NCBI GenBank assembly: GCA_040954595.2
Contig: CM082590.2
Span: 6,014,001 to 6,078,000 of the forward strand
Length of the DNA stretch: 64,000 bases
Source: Balanoglossus misakiensis
Taxonomy: Eukaryota > Animalia > Hemichordata
Reading direction: 5' to 3'
A program made the position numbers and the translations under genes. Below, in pieces: positions 8,184-42,729 of the stretch (the first letter of the stretch is position 1; every line of letters starts with the position of its first letter). The notes under the pieces were generated by a model, which saw only the letters and a program-made list of their open reading frames with translations, was not told the DNA's origin and ran no database searches.

Positions 8184-11100
8184 GTAAGTAAAGTGTTAAC
8201 AGTAATAACTGACATTTCACACCAAGGGCAACAATGTCTGGCGGTGACGCGTACGACGACTGTTTTTATAAGTGGTTTACATTGTGTTTGTTTTGTGGAC
8301 TGAGGACTGTTGTTCAAAATTTCTCCCTTCAACCCCATGCACGTAAATTTAGCCAGACATTTTGGTCACTAAACATATGACTGTTTCGTTAAGACTTGTG
8401 GCGCTAGTCGGTGCCTAATAGGTTTATCATTTTTCAACGGGTCAGCTTGCCCTACACACGGAATATATAGAAACTTCTAGTGTTTATGTGTATTGCTAGA
8501 TGGTGCATTCATAAATAAACAATTACCTACATGTAGTTGACAAAATAGTCACACTAATCACAATGTTTTCCATTCACAAGTCCAAGTCTCCATTGAACGA
8601 TATTTTTCAAAAATAATTTTACAGGTTGAGCAAGTCCTAAGTAAACACAATTTTATGAGCGAGTTCTAGCTTTAGATAAAACACCCATTGAAATCCATGT
8701 CTGTGTTAGGCCTACTTTGTAACCATGTCTAGCAATGTGTCTATATATGGGGCAGCCAGATTGACGCCATATCAAATGATGATAACCTTTGACCCGAAAT
8801 GAGTTCATTCAAGGTGACGCAGGTATGGTATTGGTCATAAGGGGTCGTGGATAATTATGAATTCCCCATGAGCTGACTCGATCTTCTCCGTATCCTTTGC
8901 TGACAGACGACACGACAGTTTGATTATACATGTGTGCATACCCACGAGTAAGCTTTTTAAATAACCCAATCGAACTGACCATTCTGAAGGAAGAATTGCA
9001 TCACATATATGTTAGCGTCATATACATGTTGGTCCAAACCCTGGGAAAATAATATGCCGTAGTGTTTGTACTTTTCCGGGTTTTTGCTAGTTTCTGTTGA
9101 CTTTTCATTGTGATGACGTCATGTTTACTTCGCTTTGGTTTTGATACATTCAGTTTGAAAAAGTGTTGACTGAGTAATTTATTCACGATATTTCGCGATA
9201 AAATCACTTACAAAATTGTATCTCCTTGTCTGTAATAACATGGACGTTTGTACGAACGCATCGCGTAAATGTCGATATTATAAAATGTATAATAATGACT
9301 AATAAACTTGGGACTACATTGTACACACCAACGACAACCAAGAAGGAAACATTTGAGTGATTTTTGCGGATTTGTTTCAATGGTTGACATACTTCCTTCA
9401 TGATTGTCTGGCATGCAGTGGCTACCGATGCTGACCGTTGATGACTCTGTATTCAGCTCAACAGGTCGAAAACCATTACTGTGTTACACACGTTGCAATT
9501 ATTGATAGTATTAAACTATAAATGTGCATAAGCACAATCTCTGAAATACAGGACTGGTTGTCTATTCATGTTACCTTGTGCTTGCTATTTGAATGTATGA
9601 AAATTACGCAAACCCTATCCAATAGACAAAAGTACTTTTTGGGAGGCATATCAACGACCAGAAACAAAGCCGTTGCATGACCCATGAGTTTCTGTCTCTA
9701 CCCAATAATTTGCCCACACAGGGGTTTCATGGATTTAATGGTGATACTTTCATTCCAATTGTTCAGTGTATTCTTGAGACTGTTGCTCATCCGGGCGCTG
9801 TCATTATCTAGTACATTCTGGAGTGAAGTAATATTTCAATGCGATGTCGCAGTTCTTTGTCAAAATATATTATTTTAGCTATCACTTTGTCAGTCTTTGC
9901 GAATTAGGTTTTTCAGAATCAAGGATCTGAAGAACTTTGATATATTTAATGGAATACACTGAAACATTAACAATTGCATATTTCATTGAATATTATAGGA
10001 TCTGATTGATGCTGCTGGGGATGGTGATGTTGCAAGGATTCGGTCGTTGATAGCTGATGGGTACAATGTCAATGCAAAGGGTGTATACCGTTCAAAGACG
10101 ACAGGCTGGACCTGGGTAAGAATTCACCCTCACACTTTTACAACGTCATGCCGCAGTAGTAACTAATATGATATAGAGCAAACGAATTGTCCTTGAGTTT
10201 CACTGATGGACTAAAAACCTTTCATATGCTAGTTAAATTCAATTCAGAAGATCTCCAGTCTTTTAAGTTTATATTTCATGTCTGTACTCACTAACACACA
10301 CAAAAAATATTTCCATGTTGTTTTTCTTAAAGTAATTAAAAATACACATTGTAATCAAGACATAACATAAGCTCTTTGATATTTTAAAGAGAGGGGTAAC
10401 CAAGGTGGGAAGTCGTTTTCCCAAAATCAATTATTTCTCCTCGCCTCGATTCGACGAATTTCAACGATCCCGTAGACCATTCATGCATAGCTCCATCAAA
10501 AGCATCCAATCTTCCGAATATCTTGGGATCAACTTGAGGAAAGGTCAAGCGAATGTCAACTCTGTTGCCGACCGAGCGATGTAACCTTGCCCCCAGGCGG
10601 TAATCTCTTGTCCCAATCCCTCATGTAAGCAACAAACCATAGTAATTATCTCGCTGTATTTTTCTGTACCAGTAAAGAAAAAATATTTTTCCAAAGCTAA
10701 ATTGTCATGTGACGTTTAGAAATTAATATCTCTTTTGAAAATAGGGCTAACATACTTAGGTTACTAACACTTGTTGTGCAAGGAAAACACAAAATATGTT
10801 GGAGAAAAAAAAGATTTAAACGAAGTGAAATTGATGATCACTTCTACTAAAGTACTTTAATTGGTTTTGAAATGTTAACAATTGAGAATATTTTGCCGAT
10901 TCAGTTGCATTTTGATATCTGTTTTTCGCAAAACATATTTTTTGATTGAGAGTTGATGTGAGGCAATCCACCTGATCAAAACCTTAAATTTAGAGAAAAG
11001 TCGTCACTTATGACAGATACGTCATAAAACGATTTACTTAGGATCCAATACATAAAATATATTACTTGCATAAGTGCAAAATGTGACCTTTTCCCATATT

Positions 11101-14100
11101 TAATGATTGTACTGTTTCTTAATTTAATTTTGTGTCCCATACCAATGTTGGGTTCATAGAGGGCTTGGCCTAAACTTACATCAACAGAGAAAAACGAGGA
11201 TTGTATGTGTCTGGTGTATCACGTCTGCCATGTTTATCTGTTAGAGTAGTTGGTGTGATTGAAAATTTGAACATATCAATGTAATTTATGAAACGATATT
11301 AAGACCTGTTGCACCTATGAGTCTGCATAAACATGTATAGTGCGCTACATTATATTAGAATTTTATAGTGTTACACTTGTTAGAAAAATCTATAGGACAT
11401 GTTATAAATGTTCTCTGAAACAATAGAGTGTTTTGGTCTGAAACAACTATAGATGCTACAAACATTTAACTCATAATATAAGTCAACACTTATGGTTACA
11501 AATCGATTCCATTGAAATCATAGCCATGTCACCTTACAAGTCCAACATTGGAACAAAGCTTGTGTTTATTTTAATTCAAATGAATTTGTCAATTTCAGTC
11601 TGAATGGACAGCATTGCATGTCGCAGCCTTCAATAATAAACTGGAAGCGGCACAAGTGTTGATCGACCATGAAGCTGACGTCAATGCTAAGAATGAGGTA
11701 AGTGGCTTTACATGCTCACTCACCAATAGCCCGAACAGCCAAAAAGGTGACACTGTACTTATATTTTGTAGTGTTGACGACCTTCGGGATGTCAATCCCG
11801 TAACTAATGTTCCTGCAACAAATTAACCGACACACATACATGTATATACTAATATTATGCAGAGTATGAAAGAGTTTGAGGTTAGTTTTTGGTCCGTGGC
11901 TATGTGGAATTCTTATATATGTAACCCGGAGTTTGATTTGGTTATTCACAACACAAGTCAACACTACCCGGACCGAGTTCATTCAATGTCACGAACAAGA
12001 ACAGATATCGCACAAATTGTTAGCAGTCAACAGTATTGCTATTTTATTGCTATGATAACTAGAGAACTATCTAACAGAAATATGGGTCGCTTTACAATGA
12101 TCGAAACACTGAATAAATGACTTGCATAGAATTCCACTAGTCCACTGTGTTATGACTGAAATAAGTCCAGTGTTCATCAAAACAGAAACCCTACAGTCTA
12201 TTCAACTTAGCTGTTCAGCTAAACCGCGAATAAGCGATGATACGAAGCTGGCTGTGTCAACGTCGTAAATCGGTCCCTGGCAACCGGCGAGTCCTGGCCT
12301 GTGTTGTCACGATCTACGTTGCAGACGAGTATCCCTCCACACACGGCAACGGGTATTTTCCTATACACACGCACGCATCTAGGGCTTCCCACTCGGGCTT
12401 GCAATAGTATACAATCCACAGTTCCGCATTCAACACTCAGCACAGTTCTGTAGGTTTCAAATAAAACTGTTCGAAAGACATCTCATTTTGTAAACAAAGA
12501 TGATGGGTCATTCACTTAGAAACGTGTACATGCGCATACTACATATGGAACAAGTACACGCAGTCACTGTGCCCAACCACCTTTTTTATACAGTGGTCAC
12601 GTAACATGCATTTCTAGTGACCTTAGAGAAATCTATTTTTAATACATTTTCCAAAACGCGCCTTGATTTCACAGGCGTTTTATAGTTTCTAAAATGACGT
12701 CATGGTTATGACAGAAGGTATGCGCCTGCGCAAGTTTCTAGGTGAATGACCTTTCAAAATGGAGGCGCAAGGGGAGTTCGTCTGGACAGGGAGATAGCGA
12801 TTTTTTCCGCATTTTTAGGGTTCGATTGGGTGAGTCAGGTAAAAGGAAGGCGTCGATCGATTTTGTGAGCACTGTGAATGCTTGGTGTGAAGTTTGAGAC
12901 TCTGGAATTGCCAGCAACCACTTTATTTCGTCGATTTCAGAAATGTGACCAGCGAGAGCTTTCCTACCTTTAATCTCTTTATGTGTCAGTGACAGTGGGG
13001 TATAGGCAGGCTAGGCCCGAACTTGGCGAGAGCGCTCGTTTGACGCAAATTCGGGAGATCGTCTAAGCTACTGATTTATCGTTTTTAGTCACTTTACAAT
13101 TAATAAAAAACTGAAATAGCATCTACACAAGCGCCTGTGGTTCAAAGGTCAAACTAAAATGGCGTTACATAAGCCACCGATCTTTTACTGAAGGTCAAAT
13201 ATAAACACTGTAAACAAACTACAACTTCAAACTTTCTTTCTAAAATTCTGGTAATAACCTAGTCCGGCCGCAATACTAACTACGGTACTGAAACCACGAG
13301 GTTGTTTTCTCAAATATGCTCCGAACACGGCAAAGGACAAAGGCACTTCACAGCAATAACAATGCTTTGACCTTACAAGTCATTTAACATTTAAAGGGAC
13401 AAAGTCTCTCTCGCTGCCCTTTTTCCAATAATTTTGTTTGATACAAGACACCGTTTATGTTATTCTACATGTGGATATATAGTGATTCAACATACGACCA
13501 CACACAACTTCCATCCCACTTGTAGACACGAAAGTGAAAAACTCGCCAAAATGAATAATCAGTGTTTACCATTTTTTCATTTGGGTTGGATTTTTAATCG
13601 CATATGCTACAAACCAGATGGAAGTTGTATGTGGTTGAACTTTGATTCACTGTATATCCACATGTACATTAACGTAAACTGTGTCTTGTATCAAACAAAA
13701 TTAATAAGAAAAGGACAGCGAGAGAGAGATGCTCGATTCTGCATCACAAAGAATGAGTTAACGTACCTGTAGGTTTCAAATAAAACTGTTCGAAAGACCA
13801 ACCACACCGTCTCTGGGCCATTCCCTAACAAGAAACGCTGCAAATTTCAAACACTTTGTCCACAGAAGTGTTAACCATCAGCGGGCTAAAACTTGACGGT
13901 CTCACATTGTTTTATATAGGAAAAGTCATTACGTGACTGAAACTTTTATCACGTGACCCTATTTGGAGGGAAATGATCCTCCCTTGGGACAGTATATCAC
14001 ATGACTATCACATGGTTTATTTTGTAAACCGGGTTACATATATTTTTAGACGAACGAATTCACTTTTGAGTATATCGAGTGAGCCATATATAGTGTGACC

Positions 14101-17100
14101 CACGCCTAACTGTTTATCTGTTCACAAATGCTCAATATAAGCCTATAATAAGTTTCGTGATGTTGGCTAAACAGCCGTGAAAACTTGCCATAACACGGTC
14201 GGTCGATGTCTTGAAAAATTATTCTGTATTTTGCATAAAGGCAAGGAAAAATTTCAGGGGGATTAAACCTGACAGTTTATTTCTCTGTATTTGTACGAAG
14301 ACATGAAATCATCTAGTGTAGGCGTTTCCGGGTAAAGTTTATTATTACTGTAAAGGGCGTATTACACAAATGGGCGTCCAGCGTAGATTTTTGGAAAGCA
14401 AAACACGTTCCGGATCTTCCGTTGCACGAGCAAAGTGGAATTAAATTTCTGAAAATGAAACTTTTTCGGAGTTGGATCTTCAGTAGCTGTGGAAATGCAG
14501 CTGTTCCACCGGGGGGGGGGGGGGGTGGATATACTAATTCCCCGCATCCCCCCCCCCTCCCGGCAGAACAGCTGCGTTTCCACAGCTATGTATTCAGTTG
14601 ATAAGTCCAGATTGCTGGCAGTTGGGAAGCCCTACAAGTTCAACAGTACGATTGCAATGTTCCTGTTAGAATTTGGCTTGCCTTTGCCCCATATTACCGA
14701 AGTCACACGTTATTTTATTTTATATACCTTCCCACCAAATGTTGCCGAAGTTGATGACTGTGTAGGTAATAGTGAAAATCCCACTGTCACCGCGTTTCAT
14801 GAGATATAATTTGTTTCCTGATGCGCGCCTGTCACTTACATACTCCAAAGATATTTGTCAAAACCCTGAAACAAACTTTCTGGTTGGCAGCCATAAAGCC
14901 AATGCAAACTTGACATTCAGATGTGTATGAGTATACATGTACATACGGTCATAACTCTGGCTTCGCTGGAGCATTTGCTGCTTTCAGTTCATGCCAAGTG
15001 CTGAGTTCTGTGTTGGGTTGTGTCGTATGTTTGTGTGTACCGATGCATTAATTAGATGACTTTGGTTGCGCTAAAGGTTCAGAGCCAGCAGATACAGTTT
15101 TCAACACATTACACACTCGGTGCGTTGCATCCGTCATTGGAGCGTGCAAGAGTCCATCCAGACAGCTGAACGCTGTTCCCTTCACCCCTTGCATGATATT
15201 TCTGGACAGCTTCTGCATCGCTTTTTGTCTCAAGTCGGCCATCTTTGCCCATGGTATTTCTCCAGACCCTCTTTCTGGAGTGCCCAACGGAAGAAGCAGA
15301 GGGCTCTGGGTAACCGAGACTACTTGCCTGACAGACCTCGCTATCCGTCGACGTCGCGGCCAGGCACACGAAGTGCGCCACAAGCGGCGAGGCCGTCTTC
15401 GACGCTCAATTCTCCCGACCTCGCTGCTCGCGGCACACTTCGTATGGCTATGCCGTCAAATGACTGAGAGAGAGGTCTGGCTGGCGAGACTAAAAAAAGT
15501 TGTCTGGCTGAAGTCCACCATAATCATTTGAATGTCAATAGTGGTTCTGCATATTTCTTACCTTTCATTCATAATTGGCGTTCTTTGATTGGCTAATTCC
15601 AATGCTCTTTTAAAGGGTAATGAAACTGCTGTCTAGGCTTTTATAATATTTAGATCATTGTCAGTTAGAGGTATTGTACAGAGGATATCTTTAAATGAAA
15701 ACAACACACGCACGTATCATAAATCTCAAGTAAAAGAATACCTGTGATGTTAATGTACCCTCAAAGGACACTGCCCTATCACCACATCATGCATTCATGT
15801 CCATTATGTGGATGACTGGGATGTATCCTACTATTATTTTATCCCCCCCCCCCGCCCCAAAAAAGTTTCGGCAAAACATGTTGTACCATCTCAAAAATTA
15901 ATGTTTCAGAATGTGTGTAACAGTGCATGCTTAATGAAACATTGCGTGCTCCATTTGAAGGTTATAGTCAGGGATTTTCAGTGACACCTTTTTGTTGTAT
16001 TCCCACAGACTGGATGGGTACCGTTACACCTTGCAGCATGGAAAGGCCATGGTGACGTGGTGAAACTTCTACTGCAATCCAATGCCAGCATCGATGTGCA
16101 GAACAACGTAAGTTACTGTAATCACACCAATTCTATTGTACACTCACACATCAGTGGACACTTTTTATTATCAATAACATACATTTTTGAAATTAGGTCA
16201 ATATAAAAATAGTTGACGACTATCCCTCTGCCATGTTCCCAACGACTCAGACTTTACAACCTTGTTTAATTATGGATTGTTTAAACATTTAATATTTCAA
16301 TGTCACGATTTAAAAAAAAAGAAATCAATCATTTAGAGCAGTAAGTGTTGTTGTTTTTGTTGAATGTGAGATTAAGTTCAGCAGATTTATATGTAAATAT
16401 TAGTGTGTATCTTAATATAGGACCAATAAACGAGAACTCCTCTTACTGATAACAGCATGAAGGAAATCCTCTATTCCAGTAATGATCAATAAATATATAG
16501 CCTGCCACCCCACATTAAATTATACAAACTGGTTATAAAACTTCAAACGGAAGCTCTCGTCACGCTGTGCTTGTGTGAATTGTTTGTTGGAAAAAAATTG
16601 CCCACAAATCCCTGAAATAAGATTTTTAGAATGAACGCGCAGCCCACTGTAGCGTAGACTGAGCATGACAGCGACTGAAGATCCTAGTAGGTCGTGGCGA
16701 CTGCAGTGGGGTTTGTGCTGGTATAGGAGGATATATTCTCATCAAGGGGGGACACCCACGCAGCGCGACGACCCCTTCCCTTTAGCGTAGACTGGACATG
16801 ACAGCAACTGAAGATCCTAGTAGGTCGTGGCGACTGCAGTGGGGATTGCACTGGTATAGAAGGAATAGAAGGACGTGTATCATCCATGCAGACCGCTCGA
16901 TGCAACGACCACTCAAGCTAGAGAAGCCCGCCTTGCTAATACTCAAATCTGCGTTAACCCGGCCCGCATTGCATTGAGCTTGGCACGTCGGTTAGATTCC
17001 GCTGATAAACATTATCACACTGTTGTCCGATTCCAATTATTTTAGTCAGTCAGCTTGTTGTAGAGATGACTGCAACAGGTGGTACAGGCGCTTGAATCGC

Positions 17101-20100
17101 GCCATTGATGACACGAGTATATCGACTAGGCCCTATACATGTATAGTGTGACCTACGCCTAACTGTTTATCTGTTCACAAATGCTCATATAAGCCTATAA
17201 TCTAAGTTTCGCGATGTTGGCTAAAAAGCCGTGGACACTTGCCATAACACGGTCGGTCGATGTCTTGAAAAATTATTCTGTACTTTGCATTGAGGCAAGG
17301 AAAAATTTCAGGGGGATTAAACCTGACAGTTTATTTCTCTGTGTTTGTACGAAGACATGAAATCGTCTAGTGTAGGCGTTTCTTGGTAAAGTTTATTGTT
17401 ACCGTAAAGGGCGTATTACGCAAATGGGCGTCCAGCGTAGATTTTTGGAAAGCAAAACTCGTTCCGAATCTTCCGTTGCACAAGGAAAGTGGAATTAAAT
17501 TTCTGAAAATCCAACTTTTTCGGAGTTGGATCTTCAGTAGCTGTGGAAATGCAGCTGTTCCACCGGGGGGAGGGAATACTAATTTCCGCATCTCCCCCCC
17601 CCCCCCGGCGGAACAGCTGCGTTTCCATGTCTTCACTTGATAAGTCCAGATTTCTGGCTGTTGGGAAGCCCTACAAGTTCAACAGTACGATCGCAATGTT
17701 CCTGTCAGAATTTGGCTTGCCTTTGCCACGTGTTGCCGTAGTCATGCCCAACTTTATTTTATTTAAATACCTTCCCACCACATGATGTTGCAATTTATGA
17801 CTGTAGGTAAAATTAAAATCACACCATCCCTGCATTTCATGAGACATAATTAGTTTCCAGATGTGCGCCTGTCACTTGCCTACTCCATAGATATTTGTCA
17901 AAACCCTGAAACAAACTTTCTGGTTGGCAGCCATAAAGCCAATGCAAACTTGACATTCAGATGTGTATGAGTCTACATGTACATTACGGTCATAACTCTG
18001 GCTTCGCTGGAGCATTTGCTGCTTTCAGTTCATGCCGAGTGCTGAGTTCTGTGTTGGGTTGTGTCGTATGTTTGTGTGTACCGATGCATTAATTACTTAG
18101 ATGACTTTGGTTGGGCTAAATGTTCAGAGCCAGCAGATACAGTTTTCAACACATGACACACTCGGTGCATTGCATCCGTCATTTGAGCGTGCAAGAGTCC
18201 ATCGAGATGGCTGAATGCTGTTCCCTCCACCCCTTGCATGATATTTCTGGACCGCTTCTGCATCGCTTTTTGTCTCAAGTCGGCAATCTTTGCCCGGCGA
18301 TTTGTCTATGGTATTTCCCCAGACCCTCTTTCTGGAGTGCCCACTGGAAGAAGCAGAGGGCTCTGGGTAACCGAGACTACTTGCCTGACAGACCTCGCTA
18401 TCCGTCGACGTCGCGGCCAGGCACACGAAGGGCGCCACAAGCGGCGACTTTGTCTCCGATGCTCGATTCTTGTGACTTCACCGCTCGTGGCACACTTCGT
18501 GTGGCTATGCCGTCAAATGACAGAGAGAGAGGTCTGGCTGGCGAGACTAAAAAAAGAGTTGTCTGGCTGAAGTCCACCATAATCATTTGAATGTCAATAG
18601 TGGTTCCGCATATTTTTTACCTTTCATTCATAATTGGCATTCTTTGATTGGCTAATTCCAATGCTCTATTAAGGGGTAATAAAACTGCTCTCTGGGCTTT
18701 TATAATATTTAGATCATTGTCAGTTAGAGGTATTGTACAGAGGGCATCTTCAAATGAAAACAACACACGCGCGTATCGTAAATCTCAAGTAAACGAATAC
18801 CTGTGATGTTAATGTACCCTCAAAGGACACTGCCCTATCACCACATCATGCATTGATGTCCATTACGTGGGGGTCTGGGATGTATCCTACTATTAATTTA
18901 TCCCCCCTCCCCCCCCCAAAAAAAAAAAGTGTCGGCAAAACATGTTGTGCCATTTCACAAATGAATGTTTCTGAGTGTGTGCTACAGTGAATGCTTAATG
19001 AAACATTGTGTGTTCCCTTAGACGGTTATAGTCAGAGATTTTCAGTGACACATTTTTGTTGTATTCCCACAGAGGGGTCAGGCACCGTTACACTTTGCAG
19101 CAGAGTATGGCCATTTTGACGTGGTGAGACTTCTACTGCAATCCAATGCCAGCGTTGATGTGCAGACCAACGTAAGTTACTGTAATCACACTAATTCTAT
19201 TCTACACACACACATCAGTTGACACGGTTTATTATCAATAACACATATTTTTGTACATAGGTAAATACAAATAAATAGTTAACGACTATTCCTCTGCCTT
19301 ATTCCCAACGACCCAGACTTTACAACCTATTTTTAACAATGACTCGTTAATTATGGATTGTTGCAGCATGATTTTAAAAAAGAAATCAATCATTCAGAGC
19401 AAGAAGTAATGTTTGTTTTATTGAATCAGCAAAGAGTGTTGTTTATTGTGTGGAATGTGAGATCAAGATCAGCAGATTTATATTGTTGTAAATATAAATG
19501 TGTATTGTAATATAGGTAAAATAAATGAGAGAACCTTCTACTGATAAAATCATGAAGGAAATCCTCTATTCCAGTTCTGACCAATAAATATATAGCCTGT
19601 CACACCGCATAAAAAAAACTGGTTATAAAACGGAAGCTCTCATCGCGCTGCGCTTGTGTGCATTGTTTGTCGGAAAAAAATTGCCCACAAATCCCTGAAA
19701 TTCTATTTTTAGAATTATTTTTTGAATGAACAAAGCAGCCCACTGTAGCATAGACTGGGCAGGACAGCAACTGAAGATCCTAGTAGGTCGTGGCAACTGC
19801 AGTGGAGTTTGCGCTGGTATAGGAGGACGTGTATCATCCATGCAGAGCGCTCGACGCGACGACCACTCAAGCTAGAGAAGCCAGCCTTGCTAATACTCTA
19901 ATCTGTGTTAACCCGGCCCTGCATTGCATTGAGCTTGGCACGTCAGTGAGATTTCGCTGATAAAACTTATCACACTGTTGTCCGATTCCAAGTATATTTA
20001 GTCAGTCAGCTTGTTGTAGAGATGACTGCAACAGGTGGTACAGGCGCTTGAATCGCGCCATTGTTGACACGAGTATATCGACTGAGCCCTATACATGTAT

Positions 20101-23100
20101 AGTGTGACCTACGCCTAACTGTTTATCTGTTCACAAATGCTCAATATAAGCCTATAATAAGTTTCGCGATGTTGGCTAAAAAGCCGCGGACACTTGCCAT
20201 AACGCGGTCGGTCGATGTCTGGAAAAATTATGTATTTTGCATAAAGGCAAGGAAAAATTTCAGGGGGATTAAACCTGACAGTTTATTTCTCTGTGTTTGT
20301 ACGAAGACATGAAATCATCTAGTGTAGGCGTTTCCGGGTAAAGTTTATTGTTACCGTATAGGGCGTATTACGCAAATGGGCGTCCAGCGTAGATTTTTGG
20401 AAAGCAAAACACGTTCCGGATCTTCCGTTGCACGAGGAAAGTGGAATTAAATTTCTGAAAATCCAACTTTTTCGGATCTTCAGTAGCTGTGAAAAATGCA
20501 GCTGTTCCACCGGGGGGGGATATACTAATTCCCCGCATCTCTCTCTCCCCCTCCCGGCAGAACAGCTGCGTTTCCACAGCTGTATGTCTTCAGTTGATAA
20601 GTCCAGATTGCTAGCTGTTGGGAAGCCCTACAAGTTCAACAGTACGATCGCAATGTTCCTGTTAGAATTTGGCTTGCCTTTGCCCCATATTACCGAAGTC
20701 ACACGTAATTTTATTTTATATACCTTCCCACCAAATGCTGCCGAAGTTGATGACTGTGTAGGTAATAGTGAAAATCCCACTGTCACCGCGTTTCATGAGA
20801 TATAATTTGTTTCCTGATGCGCGCCTGTCACTTGCCTACTCCAAAAATATTTGTCAAAACCCTGAAACAAACTTTCTGTTTGGCAGCCATAAAGCCAATG
20901 CAAACTTGACATTCAGATGTGTATGAGTCTACATGTACATACGGTCATAACTCTGGCTTCGCTGGAGCATTTGCTGCTTTCAGTTCATGCCAAGTGCTGA
21001 GTTCTGTGTTGGGTTGTGTCGTATGTTTGTGTGTACCGATGCATTAATTAGATGACTTTGGTTGCGCTAAAGGTTCAGAGCCAGCAGATACATTTTTCAA
21101 CACACTCGGTGCGTTGCATCCGTCATTTGAGCGTGCAAGAGTCCATCCAGACGGCTGAATGCTGTTCCCTCCACCCCTTGCATGATATTTCTGGACAGCT
21201 TCTGCATCGCTTTTTGTCTCAAGTCGGCCATCTTTGCCTGGAGATTTGTCTATGGTATTTCCCCAGATCCTCTATTTGCAGTGCCCAACGGAAGAAGCAG
21301 AGGGCTCTGGGTAACCGAGACTACTGCAAAACACTTTATTTTCGCGAGCAATAAATTTGAGAAATACGCGAGAGCCAAAATAGCGTGAAAATAAAAAGTC
21401 GCGTAATTTTTTTAAGATAACGATGAAGTGAATGAAATAAAGAGAACGCGAAAAATTAATTCTTGCGAAACAGTGGCCTCTCTCGATATCGCAAAAATTT
21501 TAACTCGCGAAAATAAAATGTTTTGCAGTACTCGCTGGCCAAACCTCGCCACCCGTCGACGTCGCGGCCAGGCACACGAAGGGCGCCACAAGCGGCAACG
21601 TTGTCTCTGAAGCTCGATTTTTGTGACTTCACTGCTCGTGGGGCACTTCGTGTGGCTATGCCGTCGAATGAGAGAGAGAAAGGTCGGGCTGGCGAGACTA
21701 TAAAATAAAATGTCAGGCTAACGTTCACCAAAATCATTTGAATGTCAAAAGTGGTTCCGCATATTTCTTACCTTTCATTCATAATTATCATTCTTTGATT
21801 GGCTAATTCCAATGCATTTTTAAGGGGTAATGAAACTGCTGTCTAAGCTTTTATAATATTTAGATCATTGTCAGTTAGAGGTATTGTACAGAGGATATCT
21901 TCAAATGAAAACAACACACGCGCGTATCATAAATCTCAAGTAAACGAATACCTGTGATGTTAATGTACCCTCAAAGGACACTGCCCTATCACCACATCAT
22001 GCATTCATGTCCATTACGTGGGGGACTGGGATGTATCCTACTATTAATTTATCCCCCACCCCCAAAAAATGTTTTGGCAAAAGATGTGCCATCTCACAAA
22101 TGAATGTTTCAGAATGTCTGTTACAATGCATGCTTAATGAAACATTGCGTGTTCCATTATACACTTATAGTTAGGGATTTTCAGTGACACATTTTTGTTG
22201 TATTCCCACAGTATGGTAAGGCACCCTTACACTGGGCAGCATTTAATGGCCATGGTGACGTGGTGAAACTTCTACTGCAATCCAATGCCAGCATCGATGT
22301 GCAGGATAATGTAAGTTAATGTAATCACACTCATTCTATTTTACACACACACATCAGTTGACACGTTTTATTATCAATATCACACATATTTGAACATAGG
22401 TAAATAAAAATAAATAGTTAAAGTCTATCCCTCTGCCTTATTCCCAGCGACCCAGACTTTACAACCTACATGTATTTAACAATGGCAGCCTGTCTTGTAT
22501 AATTATACAGTGTTTACACATGATTAAAAAACAGAAATCATTCAGAGTAGGAAGTGTTGTTTGTTTTTGTTGAATGTGAGATCAAGATCAGCAGATTTAT
22601 ATTATTGTAAATATAAATGTATATTGTTTAATTAAAGATTGTTTAAACATTTAATATTATAATGTATATAGGGCATATGACAGAACCCCATGGCTCGATC
22701 GTGGAAGCACGGCGTAACGGTAGTATTTGCATCGAGTGTCTGGCGGTGTATTCTTGCGCCCGTCCTCCGCACGAGCGACAGCGAGTGCGGGGGGCAGCAA
22801 GAATACACCGCCAGCACGAGTGCAAATACTACCGTTACGCCGTGCTGGCACGATTGAGACATGGGGTTCTGTTTTTATTACATATGTTCATCCCATTTTG
22901 AAAAAAGACCGAAAATGAAAGAAATGAGACCGCGGAATGATATTGCTTGTTTCGTGAACAGGTCACTTATTTGCATACAGGTATGGCATAATGTTTTTGG
23001 TATTGCACTGAGTGCAAGTACCGATGTTACGCGCGCGCTCGGTGCAAGTAATCGACGGTACATATGTAATAATGTGTATAATCTCATGAAAAAGCAATAG

Positions 23101-26100
23101 TAGAAAAGAGTATTTTAGCAAATCTCAAAGATTTCCTGGGAAGGAACAGATGCGTACAAATGTGCGCACTTTACAAGTTTACGTTCTACGTGTGATACAG
23201 GCAAGTTGTTTTCTTTTCAAAATGCAAAACGGTGACACCCCTTCCGGGCACAAAACTAACTACTCGATCGGGCACTTCTGACACCCTACTCCGAGAGAAC
23301 CCCCCCCCCCCCCCCGGCAGAGAAAAATCAAATCTCTAACAAAACTATCGACAAATCAAGGAAAACGCGGAATTCCAGTGTCTGACCGGAACAGGAAATG
23401 GAGACACTGAACATAGAGAAAACCAAAATGCTTGAAAAACTCGAACGCGTGGAGCGAATGATCACAACGCAACCGTGACCAGATCTCCGGATACGGAGAA
23501 AACATCCGCTCATTACTCCATGCCCGATTTAATAAACATGTCCTCAGACGAGAAGGGCGTCTATCACCTATTTCGCACAGGCAACCTATGGTCACAGTGC
23601 CACCAGGCGGTCGTGATTGTGCAACACATTTGACAAAGGCTGGTACACGTCACAACAAAGTGTTGTAAAAGCGTTCGTACAAAATCTGCAAATATAAATG
23701 CGTCAACCCACAAACCTTCACCATTCAGTTCTGCTTTCTTGCTAAACCTGCTCTTCAATATTAATAAATCTATGTTTACCAGACTTGAACTGCATTTCAC
23801 CAATTAAGAAGATAACCAAAACAGCACAAGAAAAAAATAAGGAGCTTTGAGATGTTATGGCAAGGTTGAGACGGAAAAGGGCTTATTTTTTACAAACCAT
23901 TCCAGAGAAACTGTCACATATTCCAATCCTAACATAGGGAGAATCCCACGTAATCTATGCAATGCAATTCAGTTATTGAGGGTTTCACCCAAGACACCTT
24001 TCATTGGCCTAGAATTTTTGCCATGATTTATGGTTCAGATAAAGTCCGCCCTCACCTCGCACTCAAGCTCGCTGAGCTGGCTCTCATGATTTCTCCCTGT
24101 TGATTTTTCTGAAGATACCACGATAGAAAACTTTAGAAGACCGGAGAAAACATTCTAGACTTGCTATGCTTTTAAAAATTAATGTACGATTTGTAGCGAT
24201 AGATAAAGGCAAGCTTATGAAATGCCCTTATAGATACACAAAACATTTTGTATCAGGTTGCCATGATCAAGACAGACTCAGGAAAAGGTCAACTCCCCCC
24301 TGAAATATCAAAGACTTGATTAATTTAAACTCAGGCGACCTTTACTTCTTAAAATAATTTCGCTCACTCTCATATTCGAGATATTGTGTTTCAGACTTAT
24401 TGGTTGTTCGTTGCCTTTAGTCCCGAAGACGGACACAAATTAGCACCTATGGCATTGTCAATCCAAACATGACCCTACATGTGCATGCAATGCCCGTACA
24501 ATACCCGTCACTCAGGTTTTAAATAAACTCTTTGAAATAATCACGGAGATTAAATTGTTACCCTGAAACTTTGCAAAATACAGTTCGACCGCACTAGTTG
24601 TTCGTTGATCATAATCGTAAAGATAGAAAACAAATAAGACTTGATGAAAACTGCATTACTTCACTTCCAAGTGACTGATGCCAAAGTAAAATTGGCTGTT
24701 GCAGGGCGCCACTAGCGGTGAAGTCAGGTAGAATGGACGTCTGAGTATTATATGTAGTCGCTGAAGTAGATCCCCGACGCGCTTTACACAGTGAAGTGTG
24801 AGGCTATCCGTTACATTTGTTGTATTCTCTCGTATATTAACAGTCGTCAGCCATGTGTTTCCGAAGAGAGTTGAAACATAGTTTCGTTTGATGATTTATT
24901 GTCATTTAGTGGAATCGGTGACCACCGTACACCCCATTTTGCCTGAAATTTGCTTAAAATATGGCGGTCCGGGGGATTTTATAATTGTGGACACAACTGA
25001 CTGTTCCTGTTTAAGTTTCGCCCGTAGGCAAGAATTTTGTGTCATTCCTGAATTTTTCGCGTACATCCGCGAAATTCCAACGTTTATCACCCAGTTTTCG
25101 GTTGATATTATCGGGTACTTCAGGGATTGTTATCTGCCGTGAGAGTTCATAAGATTATTCTGGCTCCCCAACATGCTGGCTGACTTTGTGGAAATTATTC
25201 TTGTTTTGTTTTCATTCAATGGCGGTGAAGTTGTAGACAACATAGCTTTAGACATTCAAACCACGTGTACAGTTTTGGCTAGCGGGGAATGATCCTTATA
25301 TTACAGCTTTAACAAACATAAACCAGACTGTGACAAGAAGCAACATGGCATTACGTTGGTCGCTCTCGTGGCCATGTTACTTGCCAGTGCATTCATGCAC
25401 AGACAATATTTTGCGAGCTTTGGCAAGCGCTAGACTTGTTTACTAGAACATTGCTTATAATTCATAAGCACTGTTTGTTTTTGTGCCTTCTATTCCTACC
25501 TCTTCTATTATAAAATCAAAAGCAATCTCTCGCATGCTTACAGACTTCAAGCTGTCCAGATAAATTCTGTAGGTCTGACAGACAAACAAGAAAAAACAAA
25601 CGATAAACACTGTTATATGTTTTCTTATACTTTAGGATGGCGAAACCCCTTTGGATTTCGCAGTAGAAAAGTTGAAGGTATGTATCTATCAAGTCCAGAC
25701 ATGGTGGTAGTGTTATATCCTTGATCAAAACACTTGGTCAAAGACAGAACATCACCGCAAATCCTTGTAATTGCTTGTAAACGCACATTGAGGACATGGT
25801 GTTTTGTAGGACAGACGTTCTAATGTCGGAGTCAAGCTTCTTCACAGGCTGGGAACTTGAATAGAATTAAATAAGCTCAAAAAGCCTAGTCTGGATAAAA
25901 TTACCGCTGACAGACTACTGCAGGTTTCTATGCAAAACAAACGCAGTCATGTTATAATTTATTATGCATTATGTTGAAGACCTATTGCCTGGCCATGAGG
26001 GCCATAGCGGCCGTTTATTACACCCGAGGGGCTGTGAGTTACCAGAATCACATGCTATTTGCCGAGGGAAATAGCATATGATTCTGGTAACTAACAGTCA

Positions 26101-29100
26101 CGAGGGGGTAAAAACGGCTGCTATGGCCCGAATATAGGCCAGGCTATAGGTATTTTATAATAAACCTCATGCTAACAGCTGGGAAAATCTTGCAATTTTC
26201 TCTTGAGGCTGGCAGACGACATCTTCAGCGGTGGCCATTGTGTCAGATGACGCGACGCTGATTGACGTGACCACGTTGGTCACGTGACCGGTTTATACTT
26301 TTTCTGCTATTTCCCTAGCGGTTCATAGTCGATTCTATTTTCCTATCACGTGACGGATTCTGGCGAATCACGGCACAGTATTAGCATGAGGTATATTATA
26401 AATATTTATATTGCACGGTCGCTTCTCATTACATGCATAACACATCAAAATATCAGTTTCAACATTTCAGACACAGAAACCCAAAAGATGCTTAGTCTGT
26501 CCTGCCAACCCGTCTCAAAAAATAAAAACAATATGAAATATAAAGTATTATGGTTAATGTTTCATTGTTTATCCGATAATATCACTTTTGTTTACGGCAA
26601 ATATACAATTAATCACATGCGAACAGAATAAAGCAAAATAAAGCAGGCCATGCAGATTTTCTCATGTTTAACTCATACACTGCAATGATCGATATGTGTC
26701 AACACACTTCTGAGGGATTGGTAATGCTTTGTAAATGTTTAGACACATTTATGCTAGGTTTGTTCACATCTTTCCTGAGATGAAAAATATAAGTCTATAA
26801 TTATCAAAAGAAGAGGTTCAGACATTGATATATTTCATAAACTCTGTTTATTCTTCTTTCAACCTATAGCTATACCACAATGGGACAATGCTGTTGACAT
26901 TGCTGTCATATTCCCGTGTATCACTATCAACCAAGGTGAATTCCCATTTTATATATCAGTACTGTTGATATGTTATCTGTACAATTTCCCCACATCTCCA
27001 CACACAGAAAAAATTTCTGCAGTACAAGTACGGCAATATAAACCTACTTATAGCATAATGTATCATGTAATATATAGGAATTTAGATTTTCATACCTAAT
27101 ACATGCAACAATGTTAGTGCAGAAACCTACAAAGTGGGACTACATCTGTGTTCATCACAGCACCCTGTAAAGAAGTAATATCAATTGTCGCGGTACATCT
27201 GTGGCAATCAGAATATAGCAATATGATATGAATGAGCATAGGGCATGCACATCATGAATGAAAGATTATTAGTCCACCTATCCAGAAAGAGAAACTACAG
27301 AAGAACAACGGAATAAAGTGAATTAAAGAATAGTAACTGTTTAAGAGTCTAACAAAGCTCTCTGAATAATACATGTTAACAAATGAATTGATGAATCGTA
27401 TGTACAAACTGTCGTGTTTGTACTGGATTCATAGAATGCTCTTTTTTCAGACAAAAGAATGATTGCACGAGTACACGTATCCCAGAAAGAGAAACTACGT
27501 CTTATTGACTTCGCGAAGAATGTATAAATGAATCCTCAATGTGTAGTATACTGTTGTTCTTGTGTTATATACTGAAGGAATTCATTGGATGTGTTCTTTT
27601 TTCCAGAAAGCATTACTCAAAGCTGGAAAGATCGGATCAATCGTAGTTGAAAAATCTGATACGACGCATGAAGACCTCGACTTGTCAGATGACACTTTGG
27701 ATGAGAAGTTGACAGCCGTTTACAACAGTGGCGAGAAAGTAAAGGCAATTGTAGTTGGTGACAGCAAAGCGTTATCAAGGTTAGATGTACTTATGAAGGG
27801 TCGAGAAATAAGTTCATTAGTGTTATGTAATGTCGACATCAAGGAGGTGAGAAACATAAAGGTATCCGAAAGTCTCACTTTAATCAGTGTTAAGTCTTTT
27901 GATCCCGAGAAAGTGGCTGGTTGGCTTTTGCCCTCAGCTAGGTATTTTACCTGCATTGATACTAAGATCCCTGTACCATGGTCTATCCAACATTCTGGGT
28001 CATTTGAAATACTGAATGTAAGTCGCTGTACCCTCCAAGTGAAGAAATCACCTCAAGCAGACAGAAAAATGAAACAACACCAAATACACATAGCTTGTGG
28101 GAGTGTTAAAAAGTTGTTCTTAAATAACAATGGTTTGACTGATCTGCAGGAGGACATCGGTTCAATTCCTGGTTTATCAACATTGGATGTGAGTAACAAT
28201 TCAATTAAGAGAATACCACCATCGTTGAGCAAACTTGTTGATTGTGAATACATCAGCATAGAAGGAAATCCATCCATAAACATACCACGTGATATTTTAA
28301 GGGGTGGTAAGGAAGCTGTCTTCTCTTACCTGAAGGAATTTCTGAACACAAATACGTTGCCTAATAGGAATGTCAAGGTAGTTCTTGTTGGTCATGAAGG
28401 TGTAGGAAAAACAACTCTAGTGCAAGCATTGAAGGGTGAATCATCAGACGTGCAGAAAACTGATGGCATAGACATCTCGGAAATAAATCTCAAAGAGAGA
28501 GATATTAAGTTGACCGTGTTTGATTTTGCTGGTGATGTAGATTTTCTGGAATCACATTCACTGTTTATTACAGATGACAGTGTCTTTTTGGTCACCTTTG
28601 ACCTCAGCAAATTTGCCATTAGTTCAACAAAGAACAAGGTGTCATCTTCACATCAAATGGGGAGAATGAAATTGTGGTTGCAGACTGTGTTTGCATATGC
28701 TCCAAATTCCCAAGTTATTCTGGTAGGTACCCATGCTGATGCGCCAATGTTAAACAGGGCTGTGCTTGCCTTGATTTGGCAGACGGTTCATGATACACTT
28801 GTTGAAATGAGAGACACACATCGCAAGTACTACCGTCAAAATATGCGCAAAGATTGCTTAGTGTGTCAGAACCAAGATGTGCTGAAAAGAAAGAGTATGT
28901 TTAAGGGATTAGCTGGATATGTGAGTATTGATGGTGATGAGGAATTGGTTGATGAAAGTCAAATGCCTCCTTCAGAAGGAAGAGCTCTGACTTCTTGTCC
29001 ACACATTGTTGGATATGTTGAGGTTTGCAGCACAGAAAAATTCCCAAATTGGATATTATACAAGGGGAATAAGAGCATTGCACAGTTGCAAAAAGCACTA

Positions 29101-30819
29101 ACAAAGGTTTGTGATAATCTTTTGGAATCAACAAACCCAGAAATCCCAGAAAAGTGGAATCTCTTGCGAGAGAACTTAAAATCAGAACGACTGAAACGTC
29201 CAAACCCAGTAATGACCTACAAGGAATACCAGGAGATTGCTGGTAACATTGGAATTGAAAAGGGTGTGACATTAGATAATGCAACCAGTTTTCTGTGTAG
29301 TCAGGGTGACATAGTGGTTGATCCATCTAGATCTACAACTGGAGACAAGGGTCTGCAAGTGCTGGTAGTACTCGATCCCCATTGGCTGGCTAATAAATTG
29401 AAGACACTGATATCTTATGCAAGGGAAGATGGGTCTGGGGAATTCATTGATAACAATGGCATACTGTCAATGGAGAACATGGTAAAAGCCTGGGCAGACA
29501 TCGAAAGTGAATATCGTGGCTCACTTTTAGATGGTTTTACATCATTGCGTATCTGTTTTGCATTTGGTGATGAACAAACATCAGTTGAAGGAAAGAAGGG
29601 TTTTCTGTTTCCTTGTAAGTTACCTGTTGGTCAACCATCACAAGATAGTTGGTACCCATACCCTAAAGACAAAGTCAGACAGGCTAGTCAACTTTACGAA
29701 TTTGGCTTTCTACCTCCACTGTTTTTCTGTGATCTCATAGTAGCGGTCAATGAGAAGGCCATGTTTGCAGAGTCAAGTCATCCCACATACACACGAAATA
29801 ACATTGTGTTTCTTTGCAATGAAAGGTTGGAACCATGTGATGAATGTATCAAGTCTGGTGGTTTTGGCAGAAGTGTGGATACTGTGCACCATGTGCGTTT
29901 TGAGTTGCTTTACCATAGCAACAGTATCCTTGTCAGTGTTAGGGGACCACAGGCTTGTTGCCTCCTGCAACAACTCCAAAGCATCATGAAGGATGTTCTC
30001 AACACCGCTCAGTACATGAATGTTGATATGAAGGTACCAGAGTCCCTATCATGCCCACACTGTATCGTTCAGTGTAAACCTAAGATTGGAGAAATGAAAC
30101 AGGTTGGAAACAGTCTCATCTGTTCAATCCCCAAATCACACAGTCACACATTTGACAACAGGTTAGACCTACTGCAGTGGCATGGTGTAGAAAGACCAAT
30201 TTCTACCCAGACTAGATTTGACATGTCCAAAGATATGCGCTGCCCAAGTCACTTTGTTATGCTGTCGGTTAACACAGGCAGCCTATCAATTGTGGGTCAA
30301 CTGACACAGTATGTGTTTTCCCACTTCTCTGATGGTTATGCAGTCCACTTGCTTTGTGAAAACCCACAACAGTTGCACTTCATCGATTTCCCAGGATATC
30401 GAGTTAGAAATGTGAATGGGTTTCTCAAGAAGTATGGCCCACATATCTGTAGAATTCTGAAGTTCATTGAGAAAGCTGGTGGTTTGTTGAAGTTCATTCC
30501 AGATCCAACCGGTACTGCTGCTGCAGCAGCAAAGGCAGTTCCAGCAATCGCTGGGAAAGCAGGTAACTTACTGTCAGAATTCTTGGATGATTTTGGAAGC
30601 AAGTATCCAGAATTGAATGACATATCCAGAGAGCCACTACAAAAGTCCATGGAGGAGTTAGAAAAGATGAAATCATCACCACACCGCAGAGATTTCCAAC
30701 GCTTTCTCGGTAAAGCTGATGAAGATGGACAGTTTGGGGGCCTACAGCCAATAGCATATGGCACAGGTGTCATTTGGGTTTGTGAAACTCACTTTCGTGA
30801 GCTGGCAAGTAAACAATAG
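8154..30819 (+). CDS. Spliced ANK-LRR-ROC-COR (Roco family, no kinase) gene; join(8154..8183,9999..10115,11599..11697,16009..16107,19073..19171,22212..22310,25636..25677,26870..26935,27607..30819), ~1287 aa
   Basis: Nine exons, all joined by GT..AG phase-0 introns, give one open frame of 3864 nt. Ankyrin motifs (PLHxAAxxGH) lie in the small exons; LRRs, P-loop GHEGVGKT and COR-like sequence lie in the last exon. Confidence 0.8.
8930..8947 (+). CDS. Candidate alternative first coding exon 1b (MCAYPR)
   Basis: ATG TGT GCA TAC CCA CGA|gtaagc; phase 0, compatible with the exon at 9999; identical 18 nt plus donor at 62891-62914 in the paralogue. Confidence 0.4.
9999..10115 (+). CDS. Roco gene exon 2, N-cap-like ankyrin repeat (DLIDAAGDGDVARIRSLIADGYNVNAKGVYRSKTTGWTW)
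   Basis: tatag| acceptor and TGG|gtaaga donor; 117 nt; LxxAAxxGDxxxxxxLIxxGxxVNAK ankyrin pattern. Confidence 0.85.
11599..11697 (+). CDS. Roco gene exon 3, ankyrin repeat (SEWTALHVAAFNNKLEAAQVLIDHEADVNAKNE)
   Basis: tttcag| acceptor and GAG|gtaagt donor; 99 nt; canonical 33-aa ankyrin repeat. Confidence 0.92.
13395..13729. mobile_element. TTAA-target (Kolobok-like) MITE copy, right TIR truncated
   Basis: TTAA|AGGGACAAAGTCTCTCTCGCTGCCC start; same family as 42376-42725. Confidence 0.8.
16009..16107 (+). CDS. Roco gene exon 4, ankyrin cassette A (TGWVPLHLAAWKGHGDVVKLLLQSNASIDVQNN)
   Basis: cccacag| acceptor and AAC|gtaagt donor; 99 nt; phase 0. Confidence 0.92.
19073..19171 (+). CDS. Roco gene exon 5, ankyrin cassette B (RGQAPLHFAAEYGHFDVVRLLLQSNASVDVQTN)
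   Basis: cccacag| acceptor and AAC|gtaagt donor; 99 nt; phase 0. Confidence 0.92.
21324..21528. mobile_element. Tc1/mariner-type MITE inserted in the third ankyrin unit
   Basis: TA|CTGCAAAACA..TTTATTTTCGCGAG ... CTCGCGAAAATAAAATGTTTTGCAG|TA; the empty site gagacTActtgcc is present in units A and B. Confidence 0.9.
22212..22310 (+). CDS. Roco gene exon 6, ankyrin cassette C (YGKAPLHWAAFNGHGDVVKLLLQSNASIDVQDN)
   Basis: cccacag| acceptor and AAT|gtaagt donor; 99 nt; phase 0. Confidence 0.92.
22680..22872. mobile_element. Palindromic ~190-bp MITE-like hairpin
   Basis: acagaaccccatg...gcacggcgtaacggtagtatttgca...ctggcggtgtattcttgc is mirrored by gcaagaatacaccgccag...tgcaaatactaccgttacgccgtgc...catggggttctgt. 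Confidence 0.75.
25636..25677 (+). CDS. Roco gene exon 7, ankyrin C-cap start (DGETPLDFAVEKLK)
   Basis: tttag| acceptor and AAG|gtatgt donor; 42 nt; GxTPLDxA is the typical terminal ankyrin half-repeat. Confidence 0.85.
25980..26403. mobile_element. Double-hairpin non-autonomous element
   Basis: Palindrome 25980-26151 (acctattgcctggcc...ggccaggctataggt) is directly followed by a second inverted pair ttataataaacctcatgctaa ... ttagcatgaggtatattataa. Confidence 0.6.
26870..26935 (+). CDS. Roco gene exon 8 (LYHNGTMLLTLLSYSRVSLSTK), probable second C-cap helix and linker
   Basis: Pyrimidine tract plus tatag| acceptor and AAG|gtgaat donor; 66 nt; open in phase 0. Confidence 0.6.
27607..30819 (+). 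CDS. Roco gene terminal exon: degenerate LRRs, LRRs, ROC GTPase, COR and C-terminal domain (1070 aa)
   Basis: ttttttccag| acceptor in frame with ORF 27562..30819. LRRs: LFLNNNGLTDL, LDVSNNSIKRIP, ISIEGNP. G1 GHEGVGKT (28390-28413), G2 KTDGIDI, G3 DFAGD (28522-28536), G4 VGTHAD. COR-like IPEKW, LDPHWL and FPCKLP motifs. No kinase motifs. Confidence 0.95.
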   Translation, partial: KALLKAGKIGSIVVEKSDTTHEDLDLSDDTLDEKLTAVYNSGEKVKAIVVGDSKALSRLDVLMKGREISSLVLCNVDIKEVRNIKVSESLTLISVKSFDPEKVAGWLLPSARYFTCIDTKIPVPWSIQHSGSFEILNVSRCTLQVKKSPQADRKMKQHQIHIACGSVKKLFLNNNGLTDLQEDIGSIPGLSTLDVSNNSIKRIPPSLSKLVDCEYISIEGNPSINIPRDILRGGKEAVFSYLKEFLNTNTLPNRNVKVVLVGHEGVGKTTLVQALKGESSDVQKTDGIDISEINLKERDIKLTVFDFAGDVDFLESHSLFITDDSVFLVTFDLSKFAISSTKNKVSSSHQMGRMKLWLQTVFAYAPNSQVILVGTHADAPMLNRAVLALIWQTVHDTLVEMRDTHRKYYRQNMRKDCLVCQNQDVLKRKSMFKGLAGYVSIDGDEELVDESQMPPSEGRALTSCPHIVGYVEVCSTEKFPNWILYKGNKSIAQLQKALTKVCDNLLESTNPEIPEKWNLLRENLKSERLKRPNPVMTYKEYQEIAGNIGIEKGVTLDNATSFLCSQGDIVVDPSRSTTGDKGLQVLVVLDPHWLANKLKTLISYAREDGSGEFIDNNGILSMENMVKAWADIESEYRGSLLDGFTSLRICFAFGDEQTSVEGKKGFLFPCKLPVGQPSQDSWYPYPKDKVRQASQLYEFGFLPPLFFCDLIVAVNEKAMFAESSHPTYTRNNIVFLCNERLEPCDECIKSGGFGRSVDTVHHVRFELLYHSNSILVSVRGPQACCLLQQLQSIMKDVLNTAQYMNVDMKVPESLSCPHCIVQCKPKIGEMKQVGNSLICSIPKSHSHTFDNRLDLLQWHGVERPISTQTRFDMSKDMRCPSHFVMLSVNTGSLSIVGQLTQYVFSHFSDGYAVHLLCENPQQLHFIDFPGYRVRNVNGFLKKYGPHICRILKFIEKAGGLLKFIPDPTGTAAAAAKAVPAIAGKAGNLLSEFLDDFGSKYPELNDISREPLQKSMEELEKMKSSPHRRDFQRFLGKADEDGQFGGLQPIAYGTGVIWVCETHFRELASKQ

Positions 30820-33800: not shown

Positions 33801-34656
33801 ATACTTTTGTCACTGTCAGTGTGCCCTCTAAGCCCATATGATACACCACTGACTCACTGGTGACTCAAGGAAATTATCCACAATACATGCAAAGTACAGA
33901 CTCTTTTACAAATCTTCAAATTGACTCAAAGCTTTAAAAAATTATGTTTGTTTAGAGAACATTGCAGGTAACATTGGCAAGCAGATATGACCTAACCATA
34001 TATAAATATGGAAATGTAAAAAGAAATAAAACTGTATGAACATGCCCAATCAAGTGTCATGTGTCAAGGCAATCCTACAAGCAGTGCAACTTCTTTCAAG
34101 CAGCCCTGGGACAGACAGTCAGAGACACTCACTGACCTTAGACTCTCTCACAGCCCACGGTTCGCTACAAGGCTCTTTACTGACGCGCCCTCAACCGGCC
34201 ATCTTGAAATTGTGTCGACCATATGTGATTTTCATCACTCACTTAGGTAGCTTAAAACCTATTTAAGGTAGGGAGAATTGCGGGAAAGTGATTGGCTTTA
34301 GAGTGTGCATGTATGGTAGCTGATCAGTGGCCTTCGTCTCTTCTTTTGTGAAATGTATAAGTGAACGGCCTGTGTAGGTATCTGAGTCTCATTGCAAGAA
34401 AAAATGGCCAGACGCAAAACACCCAGACAGTCTGGTTCACTCTTGAATTGGCACACGTTCAACTGTCAACCCAATTGCATTTGGGTGAAACCAGGTCACG
34501 ATGATTAACAAGGCCTTCTTTATACACTCAGTGCCCGCACCGTGATGTCAATGAAAGGAGAGCTCTTTGGAAGATGATTTCTTTTACTTGTATTCAGAGG
34601 AAGCATTTCATTGTACACGTTAACACCAGTGCTATTTTTCACACGTGTTCAATTAA

Positions 34657-34759
34657 AGGGACAAAGTCTCTCTCTCGCTGCCCTTTTTCTATTAATTATG
34701 TTTGATACAAGACACTGTTAATGTTATTCTACATGTGGATATATAGTGAATCAACGTTC
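34657..34759. mobile_element. 5' fragment of the TTAA-target (Kolobok-like) MITE, interrupted by a G-rich repeat
   Basis: TTAA|AGGGACAAAGTCTCTC... matches the family for ~100 bp, then switches to a G-run element. Confidence 0.75.
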
Positions 34760-42725: not shown

Positions 42726-42729
42726 TTAA

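Follow-up and report, generated by a model that had tools for sequence, protein, structure and literature searches.

The stretch of DNA analysed here (64,000 nt from Balanoglossus misakiensis, referred to below as the window, whose numbering is used throughout and whose plus strand is meant unless stated otherwise) contains a kinase-less gene that combines ankyrin (ANK) repeats, leucine-rich repeats (LRRs) and the ROC and COR domains of Roco proteins, with three closely similar ankyrin exons in tandem. We regard it as probable that the ankyrin stack of this gene has grown by tandem duplication, with likely diversifying selection at the codons of its binding face, and that the product serves inside the cell as a sensor diversified in the germline, whose targets may be non-self molecules.

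A scan of the window for AG-99 nt-GT segments with an open frame and an ankyrin motif yielded four exons at positions 11599–11697, 16009–16107 (exon A), 19073–19171 (exon B) and 22212–22310 (exon C). Exons A, B and C are all of phase 0, encode one ankyrin repeat each with a Pfam Ank match exceeding the family cut-off, and have identical acceptor and donor splice sites. As defined by self-BLAST, and for the first and third also by alignment, they lie in tandem intron-exon-intron units of ∼3 kb each that extend from 14068 to ∼22640 and are 85–93% identical, namely unit A (14068–17114, ∼3.05 kb), unit B (17115–20070) and unit C (20071–22640), the last of which has a shorter 3′ part and an insertion of ∼200 nt near 21325–21529. 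The three 99 nt phase-0 exons and their peptides had been proposed in an earlier reading of the sequence (the original prediction), and the scan and the Pfam matches confirmed them; its counts were likewise reproduced, with differences at 17 (A–B), 16 (A–C) and 20 (B–C) of 99 nt, 1, 3 and 2 purely synonymous codons between the respective pairs, codons 1, 3, 8, 11, 12 and 32 different in all three copies, and codons 13–31 identical between A and C. As each cassette is a symmetric phase-0 exon of 99 nt with identical splice sites, its gain, loss or skipping would preserve the reading frame, and unequal crossing-over and conversion between the similar units could alter cassette number and order.

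Eight exons, all of phase 0, join in frame to give an N-cap, four internal ankyrin repeats, the start of a C-cap, a linker and a terminal exon. The probable N-cap ankyrin exon (9999–10115) is an open frame between AG and GT with a weak tblastn match to the relative P0002 (E 0.011) and no Pfam match at E 0.1, and no start-codon exon was identified upstream of it in the window. It is followed by an older, single-copy 99 nt phase-0 ankyrin exon (exon 2, 11599–11697; Pfam Ank 6.6e-9, 56% to P0001), by cassettes A, B and C, and by a 42 nt phase-0 exon for the start of the C-cap repeat (25636–25677), which matches P0004 weakly (E 0.81) and, by eye, the post-ankyrin segment of P0001. A predicted 66 nt phase-0 linker exon (26870–26935) uses the sole acceptor passing the filter between 25700 and 27560, has two possible donors and can be aligned by eye, without gaps, to the linkers of P0001 and P0003. 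The single terminal exon of 1070 codons (27607–30819), supported by Pfam and alignment and ending at the stop codon, encodes all the LRRs, which are degenerate and match Pfam LRR_4/LRR_8, a Roc domain (PF08477, E 1.3e-15) with intact G1, G3 and G4 motifs (GxxxxGKT, DFAG and GTHAD), a COR-A domain directly after it (E 4.4e-15) and a Cys/His-rich C-terminal region. Pfam did not match COR-B in the window protein, while matching it in the relatives P0006 and P0074; Pfam scans of the gene showed no kinase, WD40 or death domain, nor a NACHT or NB-ARC domain, the P-loop domain being Roc. The earlier claim of one-exon-one-repeat cassettes on an LRR-ROC-COR protein is borne out by the in-frame phase-0 model and by hemichordate relatives that contain both parts, and the cassettes are accordingly predicted, from phase and homology, to be spliced to the Roco exon.

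The Cys/His-rich region after COR (29989–30816) is conserved throughout this Roco clade and is a candidate for an unnamed effector or zinc-binding domain. Cys and His residues of these C-terminal 276 amino acids are invariant among 13 sequences. The region had no Pfam match, and for its structural model (predicted local distance difference score 72, predicted template modelling score 0.58) only helical hairpins were matched, and not one of the 48,161 chains compared reached a Z of 8.

Exon C could be aligned without gaps to designed ankyrins, its codons 2–32 falling on residues 137–167 of ANK-N5C-317 (4O60), and codon n therefore corresponds to ankyrin position n+2 in published numbering (PMC4308713). 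By this sequence alignment, the variable codons 1, 3, 8, 11, 12 and 32 equal ankyrin positions 3, 5, 10, 13, 14 and 1, which places the variable sites on the face made up by the beta-turn and the inner helix; the framework is conserved. Position 14 (codon 12) is among those randomised in classic designed ankyrin repeat proteins (DARPins), so that the window gene shares with the designed libraries a cap-internal-cap layout and variability at positions 3, 5, 10 and 13 of ANK-N5C and at position 14 of the classic design. The ANK-N5C library randomises positions 2, 3, 5, 10, 13 and 33, which form one continuous beta-turn/helix 1 binding surface (PMC4308713), and together with the 4O60 alignment this supports the original placement of codons 1, 3, 11 and 12 at positions 3, 5, 13 and 14 on the binding face.

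The differences between the three copies are concentrated at these sites. Three or more changes were found in 5 of the 33 exon codons versus 0.4–2.3% of intron triplets (P 1e-7 to 9e-4), whereas a measure counting triplets at which all three copies differ gave P 0.0008 against all intron and only 0.03–0.04 against near-exon intron. In codons 1, 3, 8, 11 and 12, each pair of copies shows 9–10 differences in 15 nt, which exceeds every intron rate several-fold; at the six positions of the classic DARPin design, the pairs show 8, 8 and 9 differences in 18 nt (P 0.003–0.012 even at a neutral rate of 19%), and the differences in the remaining 81 nt match intron rates. In codon models of our own implementation, run on a small sample of three sequences and 33 codons, M2a was preferred over M1a for exons A–C (likelihood-ratio test [LRT] 18.75, p 8.5e-5), with posteriors ≥0.95 for codons 1, 3, 8, 11, 12, 15 and 32.

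The same sites stand out in further copies detected in X1, X2 and X3, three runs of one sample that contained 0.71, 0.61 and 0.42, respectively, of the words of the Roco exon. With unit A (15560–16640), 498 of 1,915,015 X1 records and 471 of 2,655,665 X2 records aligned at ≥80%, over intron and exon alike, while 114 X1 and 51 X2 contigs aligned to exon B and its flanks and one variant base at 19075 was common to 30 X1 contigs. This depth suggests tens of copies, although depth is no copy number and paralogues are not separable from alleles of several animals. Exon B carried 37 variant rows, 35 of them in codons 1–17 and 23 of these in codons 1, 3, 8, 11 and 12; 18 of the 35 concerned the four codons that correspond to ANK-N5C library positions (P 3e-4), and the four classic codons accounted for 16 (P 3e-3). 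At the second base of codon 11, each of the four letters was present at 23–28% in X1. Mean heterozygosity at the first and second bases of codons 1, 3, 8, 11 and 12 was 0.44 in X1 and 0.28 in X2, as compared with 0.035 and 0.029 at the first and second bases and 0.014 and 0.059 at the third bases of the other codons. Furthermore, the interleaved codons 2, 5, 6, 7, 9 and 10 were nearly fixed in the runs next to codons with three or four bases.

Along 15560–16640, the number of X1 contigs per variant, among the rows listed, was 2–10 at 15614–15813, 13–29 at 15894–16044, 9–27 at 16128–16180 and 1–5 at 16192–16486, as if haplotype diversity were highest around the exon and the distant intron homogenised.

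On the preferred reading, selection probably favours new residues at positions 3, 5, 10, 13, 14 and 1, and the N-cap, four internal repeats and C-cap are predicted to form one groove, like a designed ankyrin binder. A putative ligand, once bound, may then change ROC-COR in both its GTP state and its dimerisation, with the signal passed on by the Cys/His-rich C-terminal region or by partners.

To place the gene among its relatives, 7993 candidate proteins were scored with the terminal exon, and only four exceeded 40% identity: two from Ptychodera flava (XP_070549552.1 and XP_070550673.1; 52% and 53%) and one each from Glandiceps talaboti (XP_077978787.1; 49%) and Saccoglossus kowalevskii (XP_006813508.1; 41%). 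A quick tree of 17 proteins joined the window protein with the two Ptychodera proteins (Shimodaira–Hasegawa-like approximate LRT support 96) and then with that of Glandiceps (99). Like the window gene, these four kinase-less hemichordate proteins share the LRR-ROC-COR-C-terminal exon at 41–53% identity, and three of the four have ankyrins; the hemichordate relatives P0001 and P0004 unite ANK and LRR-ROC-COR in one chain. Unlike the window gene, the four are without a recent high-identity ankyrin array, their annotations being automatic and some maybe incomplete. Across the relatives the ankyrin number varies. Among 48 proteins scanned with a repeat motif, which overlooked some repeats that Pfam detects, two had at least three motif-matched repeats, the best pair identities being only 0.55 (in the Saccoglossus protein named above) and 0.39, and hence no recent array was seen in the other proteins scanned. 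A search with exon C for relatives sharing its repeat type gave three candidates, all of them generic ankyrin proteins with 48–58% identity. LRRK1/LRRK2, DAPK1 and MFHAS1 are ROC-COR proteins as well, the LRRKs with N-terminal ankyrins and LRRs; the LRRK and DAPK proteins have a kinase and repeats that are old and conserved, whereas the window gene is without kinase, WD40 or death domain. In P0002 and P0074, a Rho/Ras-like small GTPase is fused before the LRR-ROC-COR core, which gives two GTPase domains per chain.

The closest published parallels come from outside the animals. In brown-algal ROCO genes (Ectocarpus, PMC3341825; four species, PMC11378527), every LRR occupies a 72 nt exon of its own, and the concave face is under positive selection. 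Like the window gene they have no kinase and devote a symmetric exon to each repeat on the N-terminal side of ROC-COR; they differ in that their exons are phase-2 LRR exons of stramenopiles rather than 99 nt phase-0 ankyrin exons of an animal, and in that inverted or inactivated intronic exons are reported for them and none was found in this window. Alternative splicing of repeat exons is reported from the brown algae; for the cassettes, the short contigs of the runs showed one cassette-to-cassette join. The brown-algal proteins have been proposed as immune receptors. The site-level signal of the window gene is model-dependent. In fungal NOD-like receptors (NLRs) such as Podospora Pa_3_8560, the ankyrin repeats are of high identity and positively selected sites lie on the face that the inner helix forms with the beta-hairpin; such high-identity repeats amount to 0.8% in metazoans (PMC4986451). 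The fungal arrays and the window gene share high-identity ankyrin repeats, variable inner-face sites and change in repeat number, while the fungal proteins have a NACHT/NB-ARC switch with C-terminal repeats and the window gene a ROC-COR GTPase with N-terminal repeats, each in its own exon within a 3 kb unit. Bacterial ROC-COR proteins with fast-evolving LRRs occur in conflict systems (PMC8195603, which reports no ankyrin-on-Roco array from animals). The original prediction had drawn the parallels to Ectocarpus LRR exons and fungal repeat arrays, both of which are published (PMC3341825, PMC11378527, PMC4986451), and had called the system undescribed, which has to be qualified: the design is in print for brown-algal ROCO genes and the ankyrin positions for fungal NLRs, and it is for an ankyrin-on-Roco array in an animal that no precedent was found in a literature search limited largely to open-access papers. 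In its mode of working the window array resembles those of algal ROCO genes and fungal NLRs, yet it is a member of neither group.

The window gene is a candidate for an immune role. If the preferred reading is true, an animal has arrived, by means of another kind of repeat, at the brown-algal solution of a Roco switch with a separate exon for each repeat, and the residues that engineers randomise in ankyrin libraries are those that selection has chosen. The gene would then represent a candidate cytosolic receptor repertoire near the chordate lineage, and a model for the coupling of ligand binding to the GTPase in kinase-less Roco proteins, relatives of LRRK2, which would be testable because the cassettes can be swapped one by one.

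Selection could also be real in a protein that is not a sensor, its groove evading a parasite or pathogen factor or binding a fast-evolving self partner, as in allorecognition or the control of selfish elements. Several relatives with just one to three ankyrins, or with other N-terminal domains, resemble ordinary signalling proteins, and comparable fungal arrays function in allorecognition (PMC4986451). We nevertheless consider this explanation rather unlikely, as a repertoire accounts for the simultaneous presence of many variants better than serial escape does, the analogues in the literature are interpreted as receptors, and the clade includes death-effector fusions (P0012 and P0063).

Several observations weigh against a diversified sensor, and some of them favour the absence of positive selection, an explanation that we judge unlikely. 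Under it, purifying selection would hold the framework and leave surface codons free, the clusters would stem from multi-base mutations or from short tracts converted by older ankyrin paralogues, and distant introns would look young because they are homogenised. The upstream introns differ at 152/1922, 119/1907 and 147/1916 aligned sites (6–8%), the downstream introns at 92/606, 58/310 and 41/317 (13–19%), the 100 nt flanking the exons on each side by 9–14% and the exons by 16–20%. The exons thus exceed the upstream introns (Fisher p 0.004, 0.0007 and 0.0001), but show no significant excess over the downstream introns (p 0.65, 0.65 and 0.10), and comparison with the ±100 nt gave p 0.28, 0.48 and 0.03. 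The intron sample of the original prediction (15661–15780 versus 18720–18839) does differ at 6/120, as counted, but is an unusually conserved stretch and not representative; close to the exons, intron sequence has diverged about as far as the exons themselves, contrary to the contrast drawn from that sample. We have rejected exon-versus-intron divergence as the main argument, since the near-exon and downstream introns are 9–19% divergent. Likewise, the earlier argument from few synonymous codons conceals a whole-exon Nei–Gojobori ratio of nonsynonymous to synonymous substitution near 1 (1.89, 0.68 and 1.12). Given this ratio and the near-exon intron divergence, the claim of selection rests on individual sites.

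At those sites the outcome depends on the model. When multi-base mutation was allowed with free branches, p was 0.001, 0.084 and 0.37 at relative rates of 0.02, 0.1 and 0.3, and significance was thus lost at the two higher rates; with branches fixed at intron-like lengths of 0.04, 0.065 and 0.10 per site and a multi-base rate of 0.1, p was 1e-4, 0.003 and 0.03. Positive selection as originally claimed is therefore retained as a site-level signal, not as it had been argued from introns and synonymous counts, and the signal is lost when the higher rates of multi-base mutation are combined with free branches. Ankyrin surface positions are, moreover, variable in general, according to a statement on entropy in PMC4308713, and positions 2 and 33, which the artificial libraries randomise, are invariant in the three window copies, where position 1 is variable. 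Set against an explanation without positive selection are the five codons with 9–10 of 15 differences per pair, the excess of codons with three or more changes over intron triplets, a neutral fit with multi-base mutation that requires branches of 0.4–0.8 per codon, exceeding the intron divergence, and the nearly fixed interleaved codons beside variable ones, which are unlike a conversion tract.

The runs have limits that bear on the same question. Their variant table is incomplete, as it omits differences that the window itself shows (at the first base of codon 1 and in codons 2, 5 and 19), and the low synonymous values are therefore lower bounds; a codon-2 synonymous base, for instance, reached about 13% in X1 in the unit A placement, yet is unlisted for exon B. 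Variant rows are not independent, divergent contigs are clipped, the contigs probably include the copies present in the window, and codons 18–33 are not judgeable from the runs, this conserved half being swamped by short deep contigs. The extra copies may be parts of Roco genes or of other ankyrin genes, or may come from several individuals. When the units were tested for mosaicism, 133 runs were counted versus 132 expected (P 0.58), with no overall clustering; the longest run was 10 (P 0.006), one long tract, so that evidence for exchange is thin. Adenine-targeted mutagenesis of the diversity-generating retroelement type was rejected, as G, T and C positions also vary and many framework adenines are invariant.

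Run X3 differs from the other two in that only 7 of its 183,762 records aligned to unit A, with depth in 3 of 30 bins, only those over the exon. In one contig, a near-identical end of exon 2 is joined to a cassette absent from the window, in the exon order of the window gene, and in another the end of one cassette is joined to a second new cassette. X3, a run not recorded as RNA, has the look of spliced transcripts from paralogues or alleles, and a single contig holding two cassettes would speak against strict Dscam-type exclusivity with one cassette per transcript. That the window gene is a small bystander, its unit having been dispersed into unrelated ankyrin genes or the runs pooling individuals so that their repertoire is not one of Roco receptors, would fit X3 contigs in which a C-cap exon of a different sort, or an ankyrin exon of another type, is joined to a cassette, as well as the paucity of close relatives among the proteins scored, but is very improbable, given the X3 contig with a new cassette in the window gene's own exon order and the site pattern already present in the three window copies alone. 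A wider reading, in which a deuterostome has, across its genome, tens of ankyrin cassettes that can replace one another, share their splice sites and look randomised at their binding residues, and in which recombination or splicing brings them in different combinations onto Roco switches as a cytosolic, ankyrin-based counterpart of variable lymphocyte receptors or Dscam, is speculative, and we think it unlikely.

Elsewhere in the window, a second tandem array (35031–40003) comprises three units of ∼1.62 kb that are 96–98% identical and each contain an inverted-repeat element; examined as a control, it showed no convincing exon. An element of ∼340 nt with long inverted repeats, likely a miniature inverted-repeat transposable element, occurs at 13388–13730, 34650–34764, 36142–36486, 37763–38107, 39375–39717 and 42368–42730. 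Two related open frames at 41579–42118 and about 43130–43480 (plus strand), with 68% DNA identity, have a high content of Thr, Gly and Ala as well as spaced cysteines and probably represent exons in tandem that encode a secreted beta-rich domain; Pfam gave no match for the frame at 41579–42118. On the minus strand, two adjacent open frames (43970–44917) resemble by eye the end of the reverse-transcriptase gene of a long interspersed nuclear element, with no Pfam match at E 0.1. Finally, 55928–58445 holds an inverted duplication of ∼890 nt (95%) containing tandem repeats of ∼75 nt.

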